Made by a program: the position numbers and the translations under genes. Under the pieces are notes generated by a model. It searched no databases. It worked only from the letters and a program-made list of their open reading frames with translations, and was not told the origin of the DNA. A DNA stretch of 64,000 bases from Stenomitos frigidus ULC029. Lineage in GTDB: Bacteria > Cyanobacteriota > Cyanobacteriia > Leptolyngbyales > Leptolyngbyaceae. Shown one piece after another: positions 54,026 through 64,000 of the stretch. Location of the stretch: positions 2,619,515 to 2,683,514 of the forward strand of contig CP170648.1 in NCBI GenBank assembly GCA_042919575.1, given 5' to 3'. Position 1 is the first letter of the stretch. Each line of letters begins with the position of its first letter.

Positions 54026-54565
54026 TTGCTTCAGCATTATAAAGTTTGCTTAACTAATCGCCAGCTAATCACCAACGGACACTCTGTCCTCCAACATTTT
54101 TGCGACTCAACATTTATGGATGTTTCTCAATCTCACTTGCTGCTGAAGCGCACGATCAACGTCAAGGCGATCGTCACCGCTCGATGGAAAGATGACGCAC
54201 AGCAACAGCTCCAGGCGCAGCTTAACCAGCTCGACAACCAGCTTCAGCAACTCGAAATGCAAGGGCAGCGCATGATTGCCGAAATTCAGAAGCAGAGCCT
54301 CAAGCCACCCGGTCCTGAAACGCTCCAGCAAATTGATGGCATCCAAATTCAGGTGAACGAAAAAAAGAGCGAATTTTTGGAGCAAAAAAACCAAATTTTG
54401 CAGCAGCTTCAGCAAATTCAACTGCTAGAGCTAGACCAAGAGGTGCAGCAGGGGCAGATCGACAGCATTTTTCGGGTTGAAACGGGCGATAATTTGATCG
54501 AAAAAATGCAGGTTGAAATCTTACTGCGTGATGGCGTTGTAGAAGCAATTCGCGGAGCCGTTTAA
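54026..54565 (+). CDS. hypothetical Gln-rich coiled-coil protein (possibly YlqD-like; real start may be the Met at 54116)
   Basis: VKAIVTARWKDDAQQQL... then heptad-like Q/L-rich sequence. Confidence 0.4.
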   Translation: MLQHYKVCLTNRQLITNGHSVLQHFCDSTFMDVSQSHLLLKRTINVKAIVTARWKDDAQQQLQAQLNQLDNQLQQLEMQGQRMIAEIQKQSLKPPGPETLQQIDGIQIQVNEKKSEFLEQKNQILQQLQQIQLLELDQEVQQGQIDSIFRVETGDNLIEKMQVEILLRDGVVEAIRGAV

Positions 54566-54656: not shown

Positions 54657-55955
54657 ATGATTTACGAAGTTTTCATGCCTGCACTTAGCTCCACGATGAC
54701 CGAGGGGAAGATTGTTTCCTGGGTCAAAGCACCTGGCGATAAGGTCGAAAAAGGTGAAACGGTCGTCGTGGTGGAATCTGACAAAGCAGATATGGATGTG
54801 GAATCCTTTTATGAGGGCTACTTAGGTTTGATTGTGGTGCCAGCAGGCGAAAGTGCTCCCGTTGGCGCAGCGATCGCCCTGATTGCCGAAACTGAAGCTG
54901 AAATTGCCACGACTCAACAGCAAGCGGCAGGTCAAGCGGCTCCCGTTGAAACCCCAGGCGCGATCGCAGCTACCAAAGATGTGCCGACAGCCGTAGCGAC
55001 TCCAGTCGCCTCTGTGCAAAACGGGAATGCAGCAGGGAGTGCAACCACTCCAAACGGACGGATGGTGGTTTCGCCTCGCGCCCGTAAACTGGCAAAAGAG
55101 CTGAAAGTTGACCTGAATACTCTCAGCGGCAGTGGACCCCACGGACGCATCGTTGCCGAAGATGTTGAAGCTGCCGCTGGTAGACCTGCTGCCAAAGCCC
55201 CTATTGCACCACCGCCGCCACTGCCCTCAGTCACGCCTTCGGTTGCCAAACCAGCCATCGCGCCTCCTGCGCCTGCGATCGGAGGGCAGCAAGTACCCCT
55301 TACAACGCTACAAAACGCGATCGTGCGGAATATGGCAGCCAGCCTGGAAGTTCCCACTTTCCACGTTGGCTATACAATTACAACCGACCATCTGGACAAG
55401 CTCTACAAGCAAATTAAGTCTAAAGGTGTGACGATGACAGCGCTGCTGGCAAAAGCCGTTGCTGTCACGCTGCAAAAGCATCCGCTCTTGAATGCAAGCT
55501 ATGTCAATCAGAACATCTCTCATCCAGCTGGGATTAACGTAGCTGTAGCGGTGGCAATGGATGATGGCGGACTGATTACGCCTGTGTTGCAGCAAGCCGA
55601 TCAATTGGATATCTATACCCTATCGCGCACCTGGAAAAGCCTGGTCGATCGCGCCAGAGCGAAGCAGTTGCAGCCAGACGAGTATAGTTCCGGCACCTTC
55701 ACGATTTCTAATCTCGGTATGTTTGGGGTCGATCGCTTTGATGCTATCTTGCCCCCCAATACAGGAGCCATTTTGGCGATCGGTGCGTCTCTTCCTGCCG
55801 TTGTCGCTACGGATGACGGCTTCTTCGGCGTGAAACGGCAAATGCAGGTCAATCTCACTGCCGACCATCGCATCATCTACGGTGCCCATGCGGCTGCTTT
55901 CTTGAAGGATCTGGCAAAGCTGATTGAAACCAACGCCCAGTCCCTCACAATGTAG
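54657..55955 (+). CDS. pdhC: dihydrolipoamide acetyltransferase (E2) of the pyruvate dehydrogenase complex
   Basis: Lipoyl domain (VESDKADMDVE), E3-binding domain (SPRARKLAKELKVDL...GSGPHGRI) and catalytic domain (DHRIIYGAHAA). Confidence 0.9.
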   Translation: MIYEVFMPALSSTMTEGKIVSWVKAPGDKVEKGETVVVVESDKADMDVESFYEGYLGLIVVPAGESAPVGAAIALIAETEAEIATTQQQAAGQAAPVETPGAIAATKDVPTAVATPVASVQNGNAAGSATTPNGRMVVSPRARKLAKELKVDLNTLSGSGPHGRIVAEDVEAAAGRPAAKAPIAPPPPLPSVTPSVAKPAIAPPAPAIGGQQVPLTTLQNAIVRNMAASLEVPTFHVGYTITTDHLDKLYKQIKSKGVTMTALLAKAVAVTLQKHPLLNASYVNQNISHPAGINVAVAVAMDDGGLITPVLQQADQLDIYTLSRTWKSLVDRARAKQLQPDEYSSGTFTISNLGMFGVDRFDAILPPNTGAILAIGASLPAVVATDDGFFGVKRQMQVNLTADHRIIYGAHAAAFLKDLAKLIETNAQSLTM

Positions 55956-55976
55956 GGCATACCCTACAGGTCAGCT

Positions 55977-56858
55977 CTACCGAATACCCCAGCGTCGCCG
56001 CCAACTGGATGTTGACTCCAAGGTACTTTGCTGTTGCTCCTGGTAATGCTGCTCCAGAATCGTTGTGGCATCTCCTTGCAGTGTGGGATCGCGATACGGT
56101 ATGGCTGCCCGTGTTTGCAAATGCTCCTGCTCTAGTTGTGTCAGGGGATGCAGCGTTTGAGCATCAAAGCTGCCGATCGTGCCCTGTGACCACTCGTGTG
56201 GCAAGTGGTTGGCAGCAGGCGGTAGCGTTCCCAGACAAAATCCCGCCGATTGCATTGCCGATCGCACTGCCGCCGAGCGTGAATACGTTGCGAGTTTACC
56301 GTCTGGTGCTAAACAGCGTGCCACCCGTGCGAAAAACTCGATCGTCCATAGCTGCGGGCACCGACGTGGCGAGAACGGGTCAAAGAAAATAGCGTCTGCT
56401 TGCCACCCTGCGGCACAGAGCATCTGAATCGTTTGACGGGCATCACCAAGCAAGAGTGTTGCCGTCAGGTGAGGCAAAAGGCAAGCGTGCGCCAGCGCCA
56501 TTTGTTGCAAAACTGCTTGTACCGTTAACGACCAGCCATCCAGCAAGGGCGGGACGATCGCCGCCTGTGGCACAGTGGCATCCAACTCCAGTGCATAGAG
56601 TTCTACCTGACACTCTGGGTTCACTGCCCAGATGGTTTCCAGCGCTGCCGCCGTGTTGTAGCCCAGTCCATAGCAAATGTCTAACACCCGCAGATGACGA
56701 TGGTGCGCTTTCGTCCTTAGCTCAGTTGCTACTACGAACTTGGAAAATGCCTCAGCACGAGCGCCTTGAAGGCTATGGAACGACTCGCCAAAAGCTTCCG
56801 AAAAGAAAGTGAACGAACCATCAGCGGTTGGCTGCGGCACCCAGGGTTGTAAAGGCAT
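55977..56858 (-). CDS. MnmC/MnmD-like tRNA U34 methylaminomethyl-modification methyltransferase domain protein (DUF752)
   Basis: PTADGSFTFFSEAFGESFHS...LRVLDICYGLGYN...IFFDPFSP matches the MnmC N-domain/MnmD pattern. Confidence 0.55.
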   Translation of the reverse strand: MPLQPWVPQPTADGSFTFFSEAFGESFHSLQGARAEAFSKFVVATELRTKAHHRHLRVLDICYGLGYNTAAALETIWAVNPECQVELYALELDATVPQAAIVPPLLDGWSLTVQAVLQQMALAHACLLPHLTATLLLGDARQTIQMLCAAGWQADAIFFDPFSPRRCPQLWTIEFFARVARCLAPDGKLATYSRSAAVRSAMQSAGFCLGTLPPAANHLPHEWSQGTIGSFDAQTLHPLTQLEQEHLQTRAAIPYRDPTLQGDATTILEQHYQEQQQSTLESTSSWRRRWGIR

Positions 56859-57824
56859 AAGAGAAGAGCATTACTTAGATGCAGAATTTGGATGCAAAGT
56901 ACCTACGAAAAATTACGTATTTCTCATGGTTCTAGTTTTCCTATTTCAGCAGAAATTTGGATTGACCGCTAAAAGAATTAAATGCTTTTTAGTTTCTAAT
57001 CTTTCGATCGATCCTGGTGTAATACCTTTATTCATATAGGCATATTTCAGTTTTGCAACGTTATATCTATTACCTAAACCCTCCTCCTTAAAGGTGAGAA
57101 AGGAAGTCAGCCGAGTCTCTTTTTTAACGGGGAGAGGGCTTAAAGTCCTTAGCTTGCATGAAAAAGGTAAGCTCTACAGAAAAGGGATATACCCCATGAG
57201 TACTTTAAAGAGCTGGAAAGAAAAAGTATTTAAGCAATTGTATGCCAAGCCCGATCGTTTTTTCAATTCAATGGTTCAAAAGCCCTGCTGCTTTCTAAGC
57301 TATAGCGTCCAAACACTGAATATTTTGAAATGCTAGAGGCATTCGGCAAATAATTTTCCGTAAAGGTACTGAGATTAGTATCTTAACTATCTGGAATACT
57401 CTAAACAGAAGTAATTAAATATAAGCGGCGACAAACATTGTTTGAAAGCAGCCTAGGTGATGAGAACCTTTCATAAAAAACGATTTGCTTTGTAAGACAG
57501 CACTAGCATTTCGCCAATAACGATTTGAGTCTTGTGTGTTTTCTAAAACAGCTTCGTTGCAAGGGCAATAAGGAACATCCTGGGCAAAAGCACAACCCTT
57601 TATGCTCAGCCGTTCACCGTCTTAACTAATTACCAAAAGCACCAGCACGATCGCATCGTCCAGATGCCGTCATGTCTGATCAATTGGTACTCCTACCGCT
57701 CACTTAGGCAATAGCATTTTTGCCGTCTCCTTTAGCTTCTCACTCGTGAAATGGGCTGCGGTTCTAGTAACCACAATGCAGTCTGGTCAATCTGTTACTT
57801 ACTTGTTCAGTCTTTTTCAGGATT

Positions 57825-60218
57825 ATGAAAACGCAAACCCGTTGGTCTTACTGCAAATTTTTAGCTGTGACTCTGTTAGTAGGCAGTTTCTTGCCTCTCG
57901 CCTCCCGTGCGCTTGCTGATGGCACGACTGCTGGAACCACCATCAGCAACACTGCTACGGCGACCTATGAAGACCCCAATGCTCCGGGCACAATCATCAA
58001 TGCGACATCTAATACTGTGACTGTAACGGTTGCCGAGGTTGCAGGTGTCACGGCCACTCCATTAGCAATTAATGACCTTAACGGGGGTACGGTACTGCCC
58101 AATGATGTCCTCAACTATGACTTCCGGCTCACCAACGTCGGTAACGATCCTACGGGTTTATTTATTCCAGGCAGCGCTACGGTGACAGGACCCGGTACGG
58201 GTGGAGCACTGCAATTCAGTATTGACGGTGGCACAACGTTTAACCCTGTTCCAGCGGGTGGCGTGACGACGGCTTCCATTCCTGCCGGTGGCTCTGTGAT
58301 TGTGCGAGTACCAGTCACAATTTCGGGCTTGGCTTCGTCTGGTTCCACCGTTGCCGTGCGTTTGGGCGACACCGGACTCAATGATAATAGTGCAGCAACT
58401 CAAAATCAGCCTGATGCAACTGATGGCTCACTGGCTACAGAAATTCGGACCGTAGACAACGTGGATGGGACAGCGAATGAAGCAGCAGGTGCCCCCAGCA
58501 ACGGCGAACGGGAAACCAGCGCCACGCAACAGGTGCTAGTCGGGGCACAGCCTCAAGCGTTTGCAGCGATTCTTAAGACCCGCACTGCTTACACCGATTC
58601 CAGCACCACTGCACTGAACGATGATGTGCTGACCTATGGTTTGTCCCTACGGGTGGATGCTACTGCACCATCTGGAACCACTGGACTCAGCCCAGCGAAC
58701 CTGGAAGGCACCACGATTAACGTAGACGGTGCGGCGGTTGTACGAGTGCTGGTATCTGATGCCGTTCCAGTAAACACGACTCTAACGGGTACGCCTGTTG
58801 CTCCAACAGGCTGGACGATCGTCTATACCAACAGTCCAACGGGTACGAATGCCAATGCAGCAAACTGGGTGACGACTGTGGCGGCGATCGGCGGCATCGC
58901 CAACGCGACCCGCATTGGTTTTATTAACAACGGTTCTATTCCTGCTGGCACCACGGTTACAGGCTTCACCTTCCAGGTCGTGACGACGGGAGTAACGGCG
59001 ACAACGACGATCGCCAACCTGGCTCAAGTCTTTGGTCAAACAGCGGGCGGTGGCACGACTCTGGTCTACGACGAATCAGGTGATCAGACTCCCAGCAACT
59101 TCAACGATGATGGTACACCCGGTTCTAATACGCCCACTAATGGCGTTACCAACCCAGCGGTCGATGGGGTAGATAGCAACAACAACAACACGGGTACAGG
59201 ACCTGGCGGGGAAGACAACGTGTTTACCGTTGCGGCAGCGGGCACTATTCTGAATGGTCCCAACGGACAGCCTGCGGCAGTGGGACCAACCAACAACAAC
59301 GATGATTTCACCAACAGGTCATCGACGATTCCAGCCAACACGGCTCCTGGTTCTACGATCGACCCCAATGCGGTCACGTTCCTCAATACAATCAACAATC
59401 CAACCACAGGCAGTCTAAGCAATATTCTGCTAGTGCCTGACGCTGCCAACTTTACGCCAGGTGCAGGCGAGGTCTTACCCCCCACTGGCACGACTGTCAC
59501 GCTGACCTATGGGGGACAAACAGCCGTTTACACCTTCAACGGCACTAACTTCATCTTTACCTCTGGTAGCACGATTGTCATTCCGACGCTGACAGCAGGA
59601 ACGTCAGTAAACTACAGCGTTGCGGTGGATCTACCTGCCAACACAGCACTTTCAACTGACACTGGCAATGGTTTCTCGATTCCCATCTTCGCCTTCCAGG
59701 ATGTGAATGGCAACGGCAGACCTGATCTGGTGGCAACGGAACCCACTCAAAACCGCTCGATCGATCGCGTTTACACCGGATTCCTGAGAGTGGTCAAAGA
59801 TGCCCGTATTCTCGAGACCGATGGCACAACGGTGGTTGAGAACTATACGCAAACCCCAACGCCTGCAAACTTACGGGTTGGCAGGTTCATTGAGTACCGG
59901 ATTACTTACACCAACGTTTCCATTGCTCCGGTTGGTGCAGGCAACGTCACCCTTAGCGCCGGTAACGTCATCATCACCGAGGATGGCACCACTGGCACCA
60001 ACACCTGGGCAAGAGATAACGACACCAATGGCGTGATTGATACCAGCAACATAGTCGGTTCGACCACTGCTCAATTCGGCACGATCGCCTATGCTCCCAG
60101 CGGCGATCAGTCTGGTACGACGCAGCCAACGGATGTCACGCGGTACACCAATACGCTGGGTATTGCAGTGCAGCCCGGAGCCAGCGGCACGTTTATCTTC
60201 CGTCGCAGAATCAACTAA
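57825..60218 (+). CDS. large secreted Thr/Gly/Asn-rich DUF11 (conserved repeat domain) surface protein
   Basis: Signal peptide (…LPLASRALA). Repeated DUF11-like blocks (ISNTATATYEDPNAPG...NDVLNYDFRLTNVGNDPTG). Confidence 0.65.
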   Translation: MKTQTRWSYCKFLAVTLLVGSFLPLASRALADGTTAGTTISNTATATYEDPNAPGTIINATSNTVTVTVAEVAGVTATPLAINDLNGGTVLPNDVLNYDFRLTNVGNDPTGLFIPGSATVTGPGTGGALQFSIDGGTTFNPVPAGGVTTASIPAGGSVIVRVPVTISGLASSGSTVAVRLGDTGLNDNSAATQNQPDATDGSLATEIRTVDNVDGTANEAAGAPSNGERETSATQQVLVGAQPQAFAAILKTRTAYTDSSTTALNDDVLTYGLSLRVDATAPSGTTGLSPANLEGTTINVDGAAVVRVLVSDAVPVNTTLTGTPVAPTGWTIVYTNSPTGTNANAANWVTTVAAIGGIANATRIGFINNGSIPAGTTVTGFTFQVVTTGVTATTTIANLAQVFGQTAGGGTTLVYDESGDQTPSNFNDDGTPGSNTPTNGVTNPAVDGVDSNNNNTGTGPGGEDNVFTVAAAGTILNGPNGQPAAVGPTNNNDDFTNRSSTIPANTAPGSTIDPNAVTFLNTINNPTTGSLSNILLVPDAANFTPGAGEVLPPTGTTVTLTYGGQTAVYTFNGTNFIFTSGSTIVIPTLTAGTSVNYSVAVDLPANTALSTDTGNGFSIPIFAFQDVNGNGRPDLVATEPTQNRSIDRVYTGFLRVVKDARILETDGTTVVENYTQTPTPANLRVGRFIEYRITYTNVSIAPVGAGNVTLSAGNVIITEDGTTGTNTWARDNDTNGVIDTSNIVGSTTAQFGTIAYAPSGDQSGTTQPTDVTRYTNTLGIAVQPGASGTFIFRRRIN

Positions 60219-60374
60219 CCGTTGGGGGAGAGTTTGAGGGTCACAATTTGAGGTTTGAGTTCGGTTAAACCCCACCTTTGACTCTCCCTGTCTGTCTCTG
60301 CTACGAAACGCCGACACCGCTTCTACCACGAGTCTGCATCCCAAAAATTTTAGCTATTTGAAGAGGTTGAACTG

Positions 60375-60941
60375 ATGAAACGTCAATTTGCGGTTGGTCT
60401 AGGAGTCACAGCATTGCTTCTGACGATGCCCTTTGCCAGTAAGTTACCCGTTGTAGCGGGTCTGTTTGATTCCAATGTGGCGATCGCCAAAGCCGCGCAG
60501 CACCCCAAAGTGCAGTTGGCTTTAATGGGCGAGAAGCAGGTGATTAGCAAGGATGCTCAAGGCAAGAAAACGATTTCCTGGCAGGGTGGCAGCCAACTGG
60601 CAGTGCAGGCAGGTGATGTCTTGCGGTATCGCCTGATGGGCAAGAACGAGGGCGATCGTCCCGTCAACAACTTGACCTTAAACCAGCCCATTCCCAAGAA
60701 CACTGTATTTATTCTGAAATCCGCTAAAGCGAGCGCCAGCCAAGCGGCTCAGATTACCTACAGCATTGATGGTGGACGCAGTTTTGTCAAAACCCCTACA
60801 GTGCCGATCAAGCTAGCAAATGGCACCGTCGAAACCCGTCCCGCACCGGCTGAGGCATACACCCACATCCGCTGGAAGCTCTCTAAGACCCTGGCTGCAA
60901 AAGCTCCAGTAACCGCCGAATACCAGGTGAAAGTGCGCTAG
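60375..60941 (+). CDS. small secreted DUF11-domain protein
   Basis: Signal peptide. GDVLRYRLMGKNEGDRPVNNLTLNQPIPKNTVFI matches DUF11. Confidence 0.6.
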   Translation: MKRQFAVGLGVTALLLTMPFASKLPVVAGLFDSNVAIAKAAQHPKVQLALMGEKQVISKDAQGKKTISWQGGSQLAVQAGDVLRYRLMGKNEGDRPVNNLTLNQPIPKNTVFILKSAKASASQAAQITYSIDGGRSFVKTPTVPIKLANGTVETRPAPAEAYTHIRWKLSKTLAAKAPVTAEYQVKVR

Positions 60942-61186
60942 TCGCACCCGCTGCAACGGTTTGGTGAAGCGGCGATCGTGTTTTTAGCGTCTGCTTCACC
61001 TGCCCAACCCGCCAATGCTCGATTGCAGCTTACGGAACGCTCATCAGACGCTTCCGGCAGAGAACGTTTGTCTGTTTTTAGGTTAACCAAAACGCCGATC
61101 GCAGTCGGTCAAAAGCAAAGGACGCAAGCGTTTCTCTCTCCGCTAGTTCTGCCTCTCCCTCAACGCCCCAGATCCTCCTCTTCCCA

Positions 61187-62794
61187 GTGATGGCTGCATT
61201 GATGTCACATCAGACTTTTCGTCACTTTGAACGCCTGAAACAACTGACTGCAAATGTTGGGATCAGTATTTTGCTCTCTGTTTCGGTCGCTCAGGCACAG
61301 ACTCCACCCGCCCCAGGCACTGCATTGAGAATTGCACCCAGCATCCAGCTACAAAATTCGGCTACTTACCAGTACGACGTGCTGAGTTTGCCGCTGTGTG
61401 ATCCACAAACGGGAAACACCCAAAACTGCGGTTCAAATGAGTCTGTGCAAATTAGCAACACCACAAACTCGATCGGGAGTACGTTTACACCGGGTCTAGT
61501 TGACCCACTGGGACGACTGGTAGGCTGCGCGGGAGAGGCTTTGAGTGACTATACCGGCTTCAGCATCGCGCTGTATGAGCCTAATGTAGCTGACCCAACT
61601 GGAGTCAATCTGGGACGGTTGCTATCGCTGTCGCCAACGGAGGTACCGGACAAACCAGGCAATGGCATTCCAGCAGGTCGATCGCCCAACACCGAAAACA
61701 GCAATCCCTTCTCACTTGTCAACAGCGATCGTGGCGTTTACAACTTCCTGCTGGATGCGCGGAAAGGGCAACTCGATCAGGGACGCTCTTACATTCTGGT
61801 GATCAATCCGCCCCGTAACTCAATCTATGCCCAGCGCCGCTTTCGCTTAACGATCGGGGCACGTAACGGCAATCAGGTGTCCTACACAGCAACGGCGATC
61901 GATGGCAGACCGATTAGCAGCGGCAGCAACAACACCTCTGTCACAGACACCATCACTATCCAGGATGCAGAACAGACCAGTTTAGTGATTGCTGCGCTCA
62001 GTTTGGGGGCAGGTGTTTGTCAGGCGCAGGAGATTCAAATCATTAAAACGGGCGATCGTGCCACGGCAGAACCGGGAGATACCGTGATCTATCGCCTGTT
62101 GATCAGAAATCTCTCCAGTGCCGCGCTCAACAAGTTAACCATTACCGATAGCCTACCGCTGGGCTTCCGCTTCCTGCCGAAAGCGGTACGGGGTGCTTTT
62201 CGCGGCACGCCTGTTCTCATTACCACCGCTCAGAACGGCTCTACAGTCACTTTTAATATTGAAACGTCTCTGCCACAGGGTGCAACCGATCCCAGTTCAG
62301 TCTTAAGTATTGCCTACGCAGCAGTAGTAACGCCCGATGCGTTGCGGGGCAAGGGGCAAAACAGCGCGATCGTCTCTGGACAGCGGGCAGATAACGGCTT
62401 TGGGGTAAAGGATGGTCCAGCCATTCACCAGCTTCGGTTGCGCTCTGGCATCATCACCGACTGCGGCACCATTATTGGGCGAGTGTTTATCGACAAAAAC
62501 TTTGATGGCGAACAGCAGCCCGGAGAACCGGGAGTGCCGAATGCGGTTGTGTTTATGGATGACGGCAACCGCATCGCCGCCGATGCTAATGGATTGTTTT
62601 CGGTTGCTAATGTGCTGTCAGGATACCGCACTGGAGTCCTTGACCTCAGCAGTATTCCAGGCTACACCCTGGCTCCTAATCTTCGCTTCAGCGAACGCAA
62701 TAGCCAGTCTCGCCTGGTACGTTTAGAACCCAGCGGCATGGTGCGGATGAACTTTGCTGTGACTCCTTCGGCTGGAGGCGGTGCTAAACCATGA
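61187..62794 (+). CDS. secreted DUF11 + Cna-B/SdrD-B-like domain surface protein
   Basis: Signal peptide. GDTVIYRLLIRNLSSAALNKLTITDSLPLGFRF is DUF11-like. FIDKNFDGEQQPGEPGVPNAVVFMDDGN...DANGLFSV is a Cna B-type fold motif. Confidence 0.6.
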   Translation: MMAALMSHQTFRHFERLKQLTANVGISILLSVSVAQAQTPPAPGTALRIAPSIQLQNSATYQYDVLSLPLCDPQTGNTQNCGSNESVQISNTTNSIGSTFTPGLVDPLGRLVGCAGEALSDYTGFSIALYEPNVADPTGVNLGRLLSLSPTEVPDKPGNGIPAGRSPNTENSNPFSLVNSDRGVYNFLLDARKGQLDQGRSYILVINPPRNSIYAQRRFRLTIGARNGNQVSYTATAIDGRPISSGSNNTSVTDTITIQDAEQTSLVIAALSLGAGVCQAQEIQIIKTGDRATAEPGDTVIYRLLIRNLSSAALNKLTITDSLPLGFRFLPKAVRGAFRGTPVLITTAQNGSTVTFNIETSLPQGATDPSSVLSIAYAAVVTPDALRGKGQNSAIVSGQRADNGFGVKDGPAIHQLRLRSGIITDCGTIIGRVFIDKNFDGEQQPGEPGVPNAVVFMDDGNRIAADANGLFSVANVLSGYRTGVLDLSSIPGYTLAPNLRFSERNSQSRLVRLEPSGMVRMNFAVTPSAGGGAKP

Positions 62795-64000
62795 AATTGA
62801 AAAAACGCTATGCGACGGCGGCTCTACTCGGGTTGTCCCTATCCTCCGAACTGCTACTGCTCTGTCTCTTGAAAGCTCCGGCTCAAGCAGCAACTCCCAC
62901 ATCAGAACCATCTCCTGCCGCCACGTCCCAGGTGCTGACAGAGGTGAATCAGACAAACCAGCCCACGGATACAACGATCGTTGCACCCGTCTCGGTAGAC
63001 AGGCCAGCGGTTCAGCCTCCCACGATCGCGCCGTCTCCCGCTCCCGCTGCTGCTCCTCCTGCTGCCGTTCCCGCTTCTGGTCAAGTCAAAATTCTATTGC
63101 CGCTTGCCCAGACGGTACTGGATGTCCCTGCTGCCACGGTGACGTTGCAGTATGCCCAGGGTAGCCAGATTGAGCTAAAAGTCAACGGCGTAGCGGTACC
63201 TGATACACTCATCGGTCGTACAGAGACGGACAAAACGACGGGCACTGTGACGCAGATCTGGTACGGGGTGTCGTTGCAAGAGGGTGAGAACACTCTGACT
63301 GCCCAGACGATGACTAACGGGGTTGCAGGTGAGTTGGTCTCAACGCAGGTGCAGGTGCGTGGCGATGTGAAGCAGATGACGGTCAGCACTGTTGAAGCAC
63401 GGATTCCAGCCGATGGGCGATCGACGGCTACGGTGCAAGGGCAACTCTTGGATGACAAGGGCAACCGCTCCAGCCGAGATGTGATCGTCACGCTGCTTGC
63501 GTCTGAAGGCGAATTTGCTGGGGCAGATGCCAGCCCCGATCAGCCTGGTTTCCAGGTGAAGGCGGTTCAAGGACAATTTACGGCATTGCTGCGTTCCAGT
63601 TTAAATGCGAGAACGGTCAACGTGCGGGCAGTCGCGGGCAGCCTGGAAGCCTTTACGCAACTCTTGTTTGAAACCAACTTGCGTCCGTCGATCGCCACTG
63701 GAGTGATCGACATTCGCTTGGGCAAACGGGGCACTAACTTTTACGACAGCTTTCGGGATTTTTTACCCGCCGATCGCAACAACCGCTATGAACTGGATGT
63801 GCGTGGCGCCGTGTTTGCCACCGGAAAAATTGGCGACTGGTTGTTCACTGGCGCATACAACAGCAACCGTGCTCTGAACCAGACCTGCGACGGCACCACG
63901 CGGCTGTTCCGCGATACGCAGTCCTGTGACCAGACCTATCCCACGTACGGCGACAGTTCCCAGTCCACGGTGTTAACGCCCTCGACTGATAGTGTGTACC
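62791..64000 (+). CDS. 5' part of a secreted Big/invasin-like Ig-domain protein (runs off the window)
   Basis: ATG at 62791 overlaps the upstream stop (ATGA). Signal peptide MKLKKRYATAALLGLSLS, a Pro/Ala linker, then Ig-like (Big_1-type) blocks. Frame open to 64000, so not in the ORF track. Confidence 0.55.
   Translation, partial: MKLKKRYATAALLGLSLSSELLLLCLLKAPAQAATPTSEPSPAATSQVLTEVNQTNQPTDTTIVAPVSVDRPAVQPPTIAPSPAPAAAPPAAVPASGQVKILLPLAQTVLDVPAATVTLQYAQGSQIELKVNGVAVPDTLIGRTETDKTTGTVTQIWYGVSLQEGENTLTAQTMTNGVAGELVSTQVQVRGDVKQMTVSTVEARIPADGRSTATVQGQLLDDKGNRSSRDVIVTLLASEGEFAGADASPDQPGFQVKAVQGQFTALLRSSLNARTVNVRAVAGSLEAFTQLLFETNLRPSIATGVIDIRLGKRGTNFYDSFRDFLPADRNNRYELDVRGAVFATGKIGDWLFTGAYNSNRALNQTCDGTTRLFRDTQSCDQTYPTYGDSSQSTVLTPSTDSVY

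Follow-up and report, generated by a model that had tools for sequence, protein, structure and literature searches.

RESULTS

A four-gene cassette at the end of the window

The stretch of DNA analysed here, called the window throughout, comprises 64,000 nucleotides (nt) of Stenomitos frigidus ULC029 (contig CP170648.1, positions 2,619,515 to 2,683,514 of the forward strand). It ends in a cassette of four genes, g1 to g4, for apparently secreted proteins with immunoglobulin (Ig)-like domains, the last of which is predicted to continue into a very large outer-membrane beta-barrel. In window positions, which are used below, the open reading frames (ORFs) are as follows.

57825-60218, plus strand: g1, 797 aa
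60375-60941, plus strand: g2, 188 aa
61187-62794, plus strand: g3, 535 aa
62791-64000, plus strand: g4, first 403 codons of about 1,250, open at the window end
62791-62794, plus strand: ATGA, in which the g3 stop overlaps the g4 start (4 nt)

The initial annotation of this DNA had placed the four plus-strand ORFs at exactly these positions and had read them as a cluster of genes in one orientation for Sec-exported Ig-fold proteins, of the adhesin or pilin type that forms isopeptide bonds, and both claims are supported. At all four N-termini (4/4), a basic n-region is accompanied by a hydrophobic core of 12 residues (Kyte-Doolittle 1.9-2.4) and by an AxA-type site. These signal peptides, which the annotation had also proposed, and their cleavage sites were called by a manual rule, and they suggest Sec export of all four products. 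Translational coupling of g3 and g4 was likewise borne out, as the ATGA overlap is present and the -4 overlap is kept in most of the 61 complete cassettes described below. The assignment of DUF11, Cna-B and Big domains fared unevenly: DUF11 stands for g3 and is marginal for g2, while g1 carries DUF7925 instead, the Cna-B call corresponds to a weak SdrD_B-like match in g3, and g4 is mostly a giant barrel.

The absence of sortase and PEP-CTERM signals, also part of that annotation, was upheld. The C-termini of g1-g3 are hydrophilic and have no LPXTG, PEP motif or hydrophobic tail, nor do they show the transmembrane helix with PEP motif of a PEP-CTERM/exosortase substrate. No sortase-like conserved extra gene was found among the flanks of 80 loci. 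The only LPPTG is at g1 residues 551-555 (59475-59489), inside a conserved L-P-P-x-G-T-T-V-T-L-T-Y-G stretch, but it is not a sorting signal, because it lies 240 residues from the C-terminus and the protein has no hydrophobic tail.

g4: a predicted giant outer-membrane barrel

The window stops at residue 403 of g4, and the full-length protein and the region downstream were read from relatives (L008 and others). The closest of these is locus L008 of Leptolyngbya sp. FACHB-321, where the cassette is flanked by the same E2 and mnmC-like genes and where g4 has a length of 1,249 aa. The part within the window is laid out as follows.

g4 residues 1-33, plus strand: signal peptide
g4 residues 34-96, plus strand: Pro/Ala-rich linker
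63079-63666, plus strand: two Ig-like domains (residues ~97-292)
63688 onward, plus strand: start of the barrel (from residue ~300)

The same order recurs in the structural model of a 1,146-aa g4 homologue, in which the signal peptide is followed by a Pro/Ala linker that is disordered and by a pair of Ig-like domains, and these by the barrel strands, some 36-38 beta-strands of at least 9 residues that run to the C-terminus. The traits that mark an outer-membrane beta-barrel, namely a signal peptide, a long run of antiparallel amphipathic strands and a likeness to solved outer-membrane proteins, come together in g4. The C-terminal ~850 residues are thus predicted to form a very large outer-membrane beta-barrel, for which the strand count is approximate, and this largely answers the question, left by the initial annotation, of how these proteins might be anchored and assembled.

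Family scans and a PDB profile search found no Pfam, NCBIfam or PDB sequence relative of the barrel; in the g4 fragment, matches to Big_1, Invasin_D3 and GH2-C5 Ig were weak and below cut-offs. Many g4 homologues are labelled "TonB-dependent receptor" in NCBI and UniRef. We treat this label as over-annotation because neither the plug (PF07715) nor TonB_dep_Rec (PF00593) nor any NCBIfam TonB-dependent model matches g4 even at E<=1; no TonB box was found either. Other known barrel systems gave equally little. Neither g2 nor g4, whether as the fragment or as the full-length orthologue, gave a Pfam match to the usher (PF00577) or to PapD-like domains (PF00345/PF02753), in the case of g4 even at E<=1, and the full-length orthologue matched neither the autotransporter domain (PF03797) nor an intimin/invasin barrel. 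Pfam scans of the cyanobacterial g3 and g4 found no SLH or other peptidoglycan-binding domain. The g4 profile describes a large family, with 3,217 cluster representatives, and g4 is the most conserved component of the cassette (60-67% identity to Nostoc homologues, compared with 47-53% for g1).

g3: a candidate stalk

61187-62794 encodes a protein whose N-terminal domain has no recognised fold and whose C-terminal half holds two recognisable domains.

62033-62368, plus strand: DUF11/CLIPPER domain of g3 (residues 283-394), with K287/D321/N392
62468-62767, plus strand: SdrD_B-like domain of g3 (residues 428-527), with a Ca2+-type motif

The first is well supported by both DUF11 models (PF01345, 34.1 bits against a cut-off of 24.6, E=4e-8; TIGR01451, 40.8 bits against 24, E=2e-10). 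Its Lys-Asp-Asn triad, K287/D321/N392, shows 100% conservation across an alignment of 53 sequences (52 orthologues and the window), and a phmmer alignment with 9IFR, a CLIPPER domain of known crystal structure, pairs K287 and D321 with its Lys and Asp. The second domain is weaker in g3 itself, where residues 432-479 match SdrD_B (PF17210) with 18.2 bits, below the cut-off of 29.7, and where a D-x-N-x-D-G Ca2+-type motif occupies residues 436-441. In longer relatives in which the corresponding region is fused to a barrel (see below), SdrD_B reaches 51-65 bits (P0299 and P0343); in a further one, P0316, it scores 22 bits (below cut-off) at 1185-1239, within the residues that align with g3 (1046-1278). 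We propose that g3 is a stalk bound to the g4 barrel.

The start of g3 is ambiguous, with GTG at 61187 followed by ATG at 61190, and in L008 the frame is open for 21 codons further upstream.

g1: a DUF7925 protein with two candidate isopeptide bonds

The product of g1 is a Sec-exported, Thr/Gly/Asn-rich, all-beta multi-Ig protein of about six domains. The segments and residues referred to below are these.

57921-58046, plus strand: N-terminal hairpin motif (residues 33-74), invariant or near-invariant columns
58560-59102, plus strand: DUF7925 CnaA-like domain (residues 246-426), Pfam match
58575-58577, 58758-58760 and 59016-59018, plus strand: K251, D312 and N398, predicted triad, from conservation
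59067-59324, plus strand: Asp/Asn/Gly-rich segment (residues 415-500), YDESGDQxPSNFNDDG...GGEDNVF...NNNDDF
59781-60215, plus strand: C-terminal beta-sandwich domain (residues 653-797), with the invariant lysine K658
59796-59798, 59979-59981, 60132-60134 and 60213-60215, plus strand: K658, E719, D770 and N797, candidate residues of a second bond

DUF7925 (PF25546) matches residues 246-426 with 216.4 bits (cut-off 26.5). The family was defined in a 2025 survey of intramolecular isopeptide bonds, which describes it as a CnaA-like domain of the adhesin clan, represented by Q8YS00 of Nostoc PCC 7120 with Lys264/Asp326/Asn415 (PMC12617251). Matched to these residues by order and spacing, the predicted triad of g1 is K251/D312/N398. 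The three positions are conserved in 85%, 93% and 92% of 185 g1 homologues, and the full triad is present in 154 of the 185; homologues that have lost the Lys have often lost the Asp or Asn as well. The initial annotation had named a lack of such triads as grounds for rejecting its reading, and their presence in g1 and g3 goes against that outcome.

A second bond may lie in the C-terminal domain. K658, in its first strand, is the sole invariant lysine of the family (185/185), and the mature g1 of the window has only 2 lysines in 766 residues, K251 and K658, both of them candidate isopeptide donors. Such depletion is specific to the clade of the window, since the family median is 10 lysines and the minimum 2. 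Among the same 185 homologues, position 719 is Glu in 182 and Asp in 3, position 770 is Asp in 177 and Asn in 8, and N797 is kept in 176. From this pattern we infer a second intramolecular bond between K658 and D/N770, with E719 as the catalytic residue. The C-terminal N797 was also considered as the partner of K658 and was downgraded, being T, S, A, K or E in 9 sequences, whereas position 770 is always D or N.

The best conserved segment of g1, however, is neither of these domains and lies directly after the signal peptide, where a hairpin reads G-T-x-I-x-N-T-A-T-A-T-Y-x-D-P ... S-N-T-V-x-V-T-V-A-E-V-A-G. A weaker version (N-x-A-x-Y-x-Y-x-D-P) stands at the head of g3, and clear versions stand at the heads of the g1-like and fused barrel proteins of Desulfobacterota; against the 596- and 627-aa Desulfobacterota proteins, the g1 hairpin shows 40-43% identity (blastp). 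When the g1 and g3 profiles were compared (hhalign), only their N-terminal regions aligned (probability 95.9%, E=6e-9, a score to which the signal peptides add). The shared hairpin may serve the structure of each protein, mark it for recognition by the barrel or act as a strand for complementation.

The Asp/Asn/Gly-rich segment combines many invariant residues with low model confidence (predicted local distance difference test, pLDDT, ~53-64), and its composition suggests a Ca2+-binding or interaction region. Taken with the D-x-N-x-D-G motif of g3 and an FG-GAP-like loop in g1, it hints at Ca2+ binding in the cassette. That loop, D-V-N-G-N-G-R-P-D at residues 626-634 (59700-59726), is a weak Pfam match. 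Searches of PDB sequences with phmmer and profiles returned nothing useful for g1, g2 or the g4 barrel.

g2: a small DUF11-like protein

The shortest product is a Sec-exported single DUF11-like Ig domain, recognised by TIGR01451 (27.0 bits, cut-off 24) and, below its cut-off of 24.6, by PF01345 DUF11 (17.1 bits). In contrast to g1 and g3, in which the isopeptide triads are conserved, g2 has no triad: the position of the catalytic Asp is Q104, a Gln in 99% of 71 sequences. The gene is present in 70 of the 80 loci, and its product is related to the 172-173-aa proteins of Desulfobacterota cassettes (35% identity, E=1e-16 to 1e-18). A role as adaptor, minor subunit or chaperone-like partner is proposed.

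The cassette in other cyanobacteria

A pattern scan of one genome per species yielded the 80 loci, and 61 of them have the order g1-g2-g3-g4. These complete cassettes come from Leptolyngbya-like cyanobacteria, Nostocales, Oscillatoriales, Pseudanabaena and other groups. The genes that flank the cassette in the window are common only to L008 and differ elsewhere.

Two features of these loci bear on what the cassette might carry. In some genomes an orphan g1, or g1 with g2, accompanies a complete cassette (Alkalinema L015/L017 and L018/L016; Nostoc L029/L023), which fits several cargos using one base. In many loci, moreover, a fifth gene for a secreted protein directly follows g4 (for example L001, at about 13.5-16.2 kb, L002, L005, L004 and L006; L011-L013, L033 and L041), and it is of two types. 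The first, in 24 loci, encodes a 650-1,190-aa DUF11 protein that ends in F-x-F-R-x-R-V-N/K like the last strand of g1; the second, in 17 loci, encodes a 500-770-aa right-handed beta-helix protein and often overlaps g4 by 1 or 4 nt. Neither type occurs within 3.7 kb after g4 in L008.

In Nostoc metagenome-assembled genomes (MAGs; L020-L027 and L047), an orphan g1 without g2-g4 adjoins a Ser/Thr-kinase-like gene, and the product of this neighbour appears from its sequence to have a C-terminal sulfatase-modifying-factor-like region.

Related cassettes beyond cyanobacteria

A related cassette occurs in at least three non-cyanobacterial lineages. The distant g4 relatives are longer (1,900-2,500 aa), with DUF11 repeats, SdrD_B/CarboxypepD_reg and Big_1-like Ig domains and a barrel, and the members of their clusters are named Smithella, Syntrophorhabdaceae and Oligosphaeraceae. 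Three arrangements were found, each with a small g2-like protein, a g1-like protein that begins with the N-terminal motif and a single polypeptide in which parts resembling g3 (residues 283-525) and g4 are united.

L083: 805-aa DUF11 protein, 172-aa protein, 627-aa protein, 2,450-aa barrel protein
L081: 173-aa protein, 596-aa protein, 1,937-aa barrel protein, 999-aa DUF11 protein
SLH-bearing variant: 157-aa protein, 998-aa protein, 2,488-aa barrel protein, 1,180-aa protein

In the 1,937- and 2,450-aa proteins, the stretch that directly precedes the g4-like part aligns with residues 283-525 of g3 (30% identity, E=1e-25). In Desulfobacterota, then, the C-terminal half of g3 and g4 form a single polypeptide within the same cassette. 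A simpler reading, in which the distant relatives are plain g3+g4 fusions that replace g3, had to be refined, as the adjoining ~600-aa genes are g1-like and not g3-like and the fusion spans the C-terminal half of g3 together with extra DUF11 repeats.

Two MAG contigs labelled Chthonomonadaceae (L014, 10001-16013) and Armatimonadales (L072) carry a g1 that shares 52-56% identity with that of the window. The four genes are all present in L014, which has a GC content of 0.66 and no HIP1 site in the cassette, and L072 is a 3.6-kb fragment with g1-g3 only. These Armatimonadota-labelled cassettes reflect either horizontal transfer out of cyanobacteria or mis-binning.

The upstream region

Between the cassette and its upstream neighbour lies a long leader.

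56859-57824, no strand: leader, 966 nt, divergent intergenic region between the mnmC-like methyltransferase gene (55977-56858, minus strand) and g1

The initial annotation had singled out this region as AT-rich, free of HIP1 and without a credible gene. It is indeed the longest gap of the window (966 nt against a median of 115) and the lowest in GC (0.39 against ~0.54). The 80-aa ORF at 57094-57336 is as dubious as was supposed, being unconserved and interrupted by two single-base gaps in the alignment with L008; tblastn recovers only 42 aa at 55%. The lack of HIP1 is real but unremarkable when taken alone: the leader has zero sites where 1.2 are expected (P=0.31), in a window that has 71 copies of the octamer GCGATCGC against 1.7 expected. 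The deficit is clearer across the cassette (57825-64000, 1 site against 7.5 expected, P=0.005), and across relatives it is marginal (0.77 against 0.88 per kb, p=0.058). The wider interval 54968-64000, which also takes in the mnmC-like gene and the E2 gene in its 3' part, contains one HIP1 site, at 60480.

Two interpretations offered in the initial annotation found no support, namely that the leader holds a small RNA (sRNA) or a long structured 5' untranslated region (5' UTR), and that the region is of foreign origin. That the leader is a functional RNA of this kind, or a riboswitch, or else the mark of a recent island, we consider highly unlikely, even though it is the longest and most AT-rich gap of the window and long ORF-free upstream regions are typical of the cassette. 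Rfam returned no family at E<=1, and the 350 nt before g1 (57480-57830) have no excess of structure over shuffled sequences (fold z=0.07). The leader is 80-81% identical to that of L008, about the level of fourfold-degenerate sites in the neighbouring genes (0.68-0.86) and thus near neutral. Two sub-segments, 57507-57605 and 57698-57796, are 88-90% identical, slightly above neutral, and this is a point in favour of a functional element; however, blastn against the 80 loci found no similarity outside L008, no k-mer is common across loci, and promoter and terminator matches are at chance level. As for an island, a HIP1-free stretch of 966 nt is expected in 31% of cases, the GC of the cassette equals that of the genome, and vertical descent has spread the cassette widely among cyanobacteria. 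At 57707-57724, ~100 nt before g1, a small hairpin with a T-rich tract behind it is identical in L008 and falls within the chance expectation of the terminator scan.

What does recur is the gap itself. In 76 loci, a median of 778 nt separates g1 from the first ORF of at least 100 aa upstream of it, and the separation reaches 500 nt or more in 74% of them. The 600 nt upstream of g1 are lower in GC by a median of 12.5 points. Since most loci have a long AT-rich upstream gap, a large regulatory region seems to be a trait of the cassette family, and the simplest reading of the leader is a large promoter or regulatory region in which no RNA element is recognisable. In 19 Nostocales loci (e.g., L029, L032 and L041), the upstream neighbour is the same divergent gene of ~435 aa, threonine-synthase-like by eye, which lies 660-1,420 nt upstream of g1, and the long gap is kept.

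Further upstream, a 179-aa Gln/Leu-rich ORF with coiled-coil-looking repeats (54026-54565) stands just before the pyruvate-dehydrogenase E2-like gene (54657-55955).

DISCUSSION

A proposed outer-membrane base for isopeptide-locked fibres

The gene set, the domain families, the conserved triads, the fold class of the barrel, the coupling of g3 and g4 and their fusion in other phyla are the starting points for a mechanism towards which we lean with modest confidence: g3 and g4 would form an outer-membrane base or translocon for g1 and g2, the isopeptide-locked Ig-domain proteins of a fibre. In this mechanism g4 would insert in the outer membrane and g3 would bind it as a stalk. The products of g1 and g2, and in relatives the extra cargo, would be exported through this base or docked on it, with g1 forming the distal part of the fibre or adhesin. 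Such a base would give rise to a short fibre or a fibrillar adhesin, stiffened by isopeptide bonds that form spontaneously within each molecule and probably by Ca2+.

The main argument that g3 and g4 act as one unit is their natural fusion in other phyla, together with the conserved 4-nt overlap of their genes. Further support for the mechanism comes from the fixed order of the cassette, its presence across phyla, the orphan copies of g1, the extra cargo genes, the high conservation of the barrel protein and the fold class of g1, together with the absence of sortase, PEP-CTERM, usher, chaperone and autotransporter signatures. Because domains of this kind could not be unfolded once cross-linked, a very wide barrel is also a plausible conduit for them; that it would serve as one, in the manner of SprA in the type IX secretion system (T9SS), is speculative and rests on analogy.

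Several points weigh against this mechanism. The model of the g4 homologue is of moderate quality (pLDDT 65; predicted template-modelling score 0.41), and the number of strands, their closure into a single barrel and the presence of a plug are uncertain in it. The isopeptide bonds are predicted from conserved residues, and g2 has no canonical Lys-Asp-Asn triad, since Gln occupies the position of the catalytic Asp. Contact of g1 and g2 with the base is a proposal. Database names of cassette members go no further than "hypothetical," "beta strand repeat-containing" and "TonB-dependent receptor." Finally, the stalk may face the periplasm, because the parts N-terminal to a barrel are periplasmic unless they are exported and because the fused relative P0299 has three SLH domains between its DUF11/SdrD_B part and its Ig-plus-barrel part.

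This last point leads to a different arrangement, in which the N-terminal parts of g4 together with g3, and perhaps g1 and g2, form a covalently hardened strut between the outer membrane and the thick peptidoglycan of cyanobacteria. Besides the general topology of segments that precede a barrel, which start out periplasmic, the SLH domains of P0299 would suit such a scaffold, as they are peptidoglycan-associated and come just before the Ig-plus-barrel part, and so would a weak Chlam_OMP6 match in P0316. We think a periplasmic strut unlikely all the same. DUF11/CLIPPER, DUF7925 and SdrD_B are found overwhelmingly in extracellular fibrillar adhesins and pilins (PMC12617251), and variable orphan g1 paralogues and extra cargo genes are typical of surface-exposed proteins. 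SLH domains beside a barrel are also compatible with a topology like that of autotransporters, with no more than the distal part exposed outside, and the g3 and g4 of cyanobacteria have no such domain.

The cassette might instead build a covalent pilus, with g1 polymerising by strand complementation as the hairpin of one subunit enters the C-terminal domain of the next, possibly with an intermolecular bond to K658; g2 and g3 would then be minor, tip or base subunits and g4 an usher-like pore. The properties of the hairpin make this attractive: it is the best conserved part of g1, it alternates as I-x-N-x-A-x-A-x-Y with invariant N42 and N63, and it recurs at the start of g3 and of the fused barrel proteins. 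The N-terminal 250 residues of g1 contain no conserved Lys, and K658 is invariant in a family whose mature member here has two lysines. There is also a precedent in the archaeal threads, sortase-free donor-strand filaments with intermolecular isopeptide bonds (PMC9715654). AlphaFold2, however, packs the hairpin into domain 1 of the g1 monomer (pLDDT 84-93), K658, E719 and D/N770 make up a self-sufficient candidate triad for an intramolecular bond, and g1, with 797 aa and about six domains, resembles a fibrillar adhesin and not a repeating pilin. We regard such a pilus as quite unlikely.

Nutrient uptake, with g4 as a divergent TonB-dependent or SusC-like transporter and g1-g3 as surface binders of substrate as in the polysaccharide-utilisation loci of Bacteroidota, is scarcely credible despite the TonB names in the databases and the CarboxypepD_reg domains in relatives (found also in SusC-type transporters), given that no TonB-dependent model matches at E<=1, that the PDB profile search gives no TonB-dependent receptor, that the ~850-residue, ~36-strand barrel region is far above a 22-strand transporter, that g1-g3 are not lipoproteins and that no TonB, ExbB or ExbD gene recurs in the flanks.

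Returning to the g3-g4 base, we can state a bolder form of the idea, which we see as possible rather than probable. The cassette may represent a new outer-membrane secretion and assembly pathway of diderms, in which a ~36-strand barrel, coupled or fused to an isopeptide-locked DUF11/CnaB stalk, would export folded, locked Ig proteins and display them as fibres, independently of sortase, usher or T9SS and as a Gram-negative counterpart of sortase pili. Cargo and base might recognise each other through the I-x-N-x-A-x-x-x-Y-x-D hairpin, possibly with SpyTag-like intermolecular locking at Lys658.

For Gram-positive bacteria, adhesins and pili stabilised by isopeptide bonds are a well-understood subject. 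How diderms export and anchor domains that cross-link themselves and cannot be unfolded is largely open, and the cassette is a concrete and widely conserved candidate, found in many filamentous cyanobacteria, in Smithella- and Syntrophorhabdaceae-named contigs and in Armatimonadota-labelled MAGs, with a barrel family that includes an Oligosphaeraceae protein. If the mechanism is right, it would be a new route of surface display and would explain part of the adhesion, sheath or biofilm biology of cyanobacterial filaments. It could also be a source of self-ligating protein modules for biotechnology.

Comparison with known systems

Literature searches found no description of the cassette, the g3-g4 unit or the barrel family, and for DUF7925 and DUF11 repeats they turned up only the isopeptide survey (PMC12617251). 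One system that did come up, the recently solved tubular pilus cluster of Microcystis (PMC12397347), is unrelated, consisting of a 12-kDa glycosylated pilin and glycosyltransferases.

The domain families themselves are known, and the isopeptide prediction for DUF7925 is already published (PMC12617251). Among the closest known systems are the sortase-assembled pili of Gram-positive bacteria and the MSCRAMM and AgI-II adhesins, with their CnaA and CnaB folds. Closest in sequence are the DUF7925/CLIPPER adhesins (PF25546, PF01345, 9IFR), with which g1 and g3 share the Lys-Asp-Asn triad and Sec-exported arrays of beta-sandwiches; the source protein of 9IFR was deposited as an "OmpA-like domain-containing protein." In the survey, such domains are paired with sorting modules such as Por_secre_tail, CHU_C and LPXTG. 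Here, in contrast, the partner is a separate gene for a giant barrel in a fixed four-gene cassette, of which no mention was found in the passages of the survey that were consulted (PMC12617251), and g2 adds a triad-less single domain.

The general plan recalls chaperone-usher systems (PapC/FimD, PapD/FimC), which also combine Ig subunits, a small Ig helper and a large barrel with flanking Ig-like domains in a Sec-dependent pathway. The cassette differs from them in lacking Usher or PapD-like homology, in a barrel far longer than the 24-strand usher, in a g2 of one domain instead of two and in subunits that are large and multi-domain, with covalent locks. Autotransporters and inverse autotransporters (types Va and Ve) likewise place Big_1/invasin-like Ig domains beside a membrane barrel, and the fused relatives, with their N-terminal repeat "passenger" and C-terminal barrel, resemble type Va in particular. 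No such barrel domain was recognised in g4, however; autotransporter barrels have 12 strands, about one third of the number predicted here, and cyanobacteria encode the passenger-like part separately, in g3. From TonB-dependent receptors g4 is set apart by having no plug, TonB box or hidden Markov model match to the family.

In size, the predicted barrel stands beside very large single-chain outer-membrane barrels, SprA of the T9SS with 36 strands, SlpA of Deinococcus with 30 and LptD with 26. Against this background we rate the locus as a probable cluster for a fibrillar adhesin or pilus that is stabilised by isopeptide bonds and has an outer-membrane partner without precedent, and we see a substantial chance that this partner marks a genuinely new route of export and assembly.

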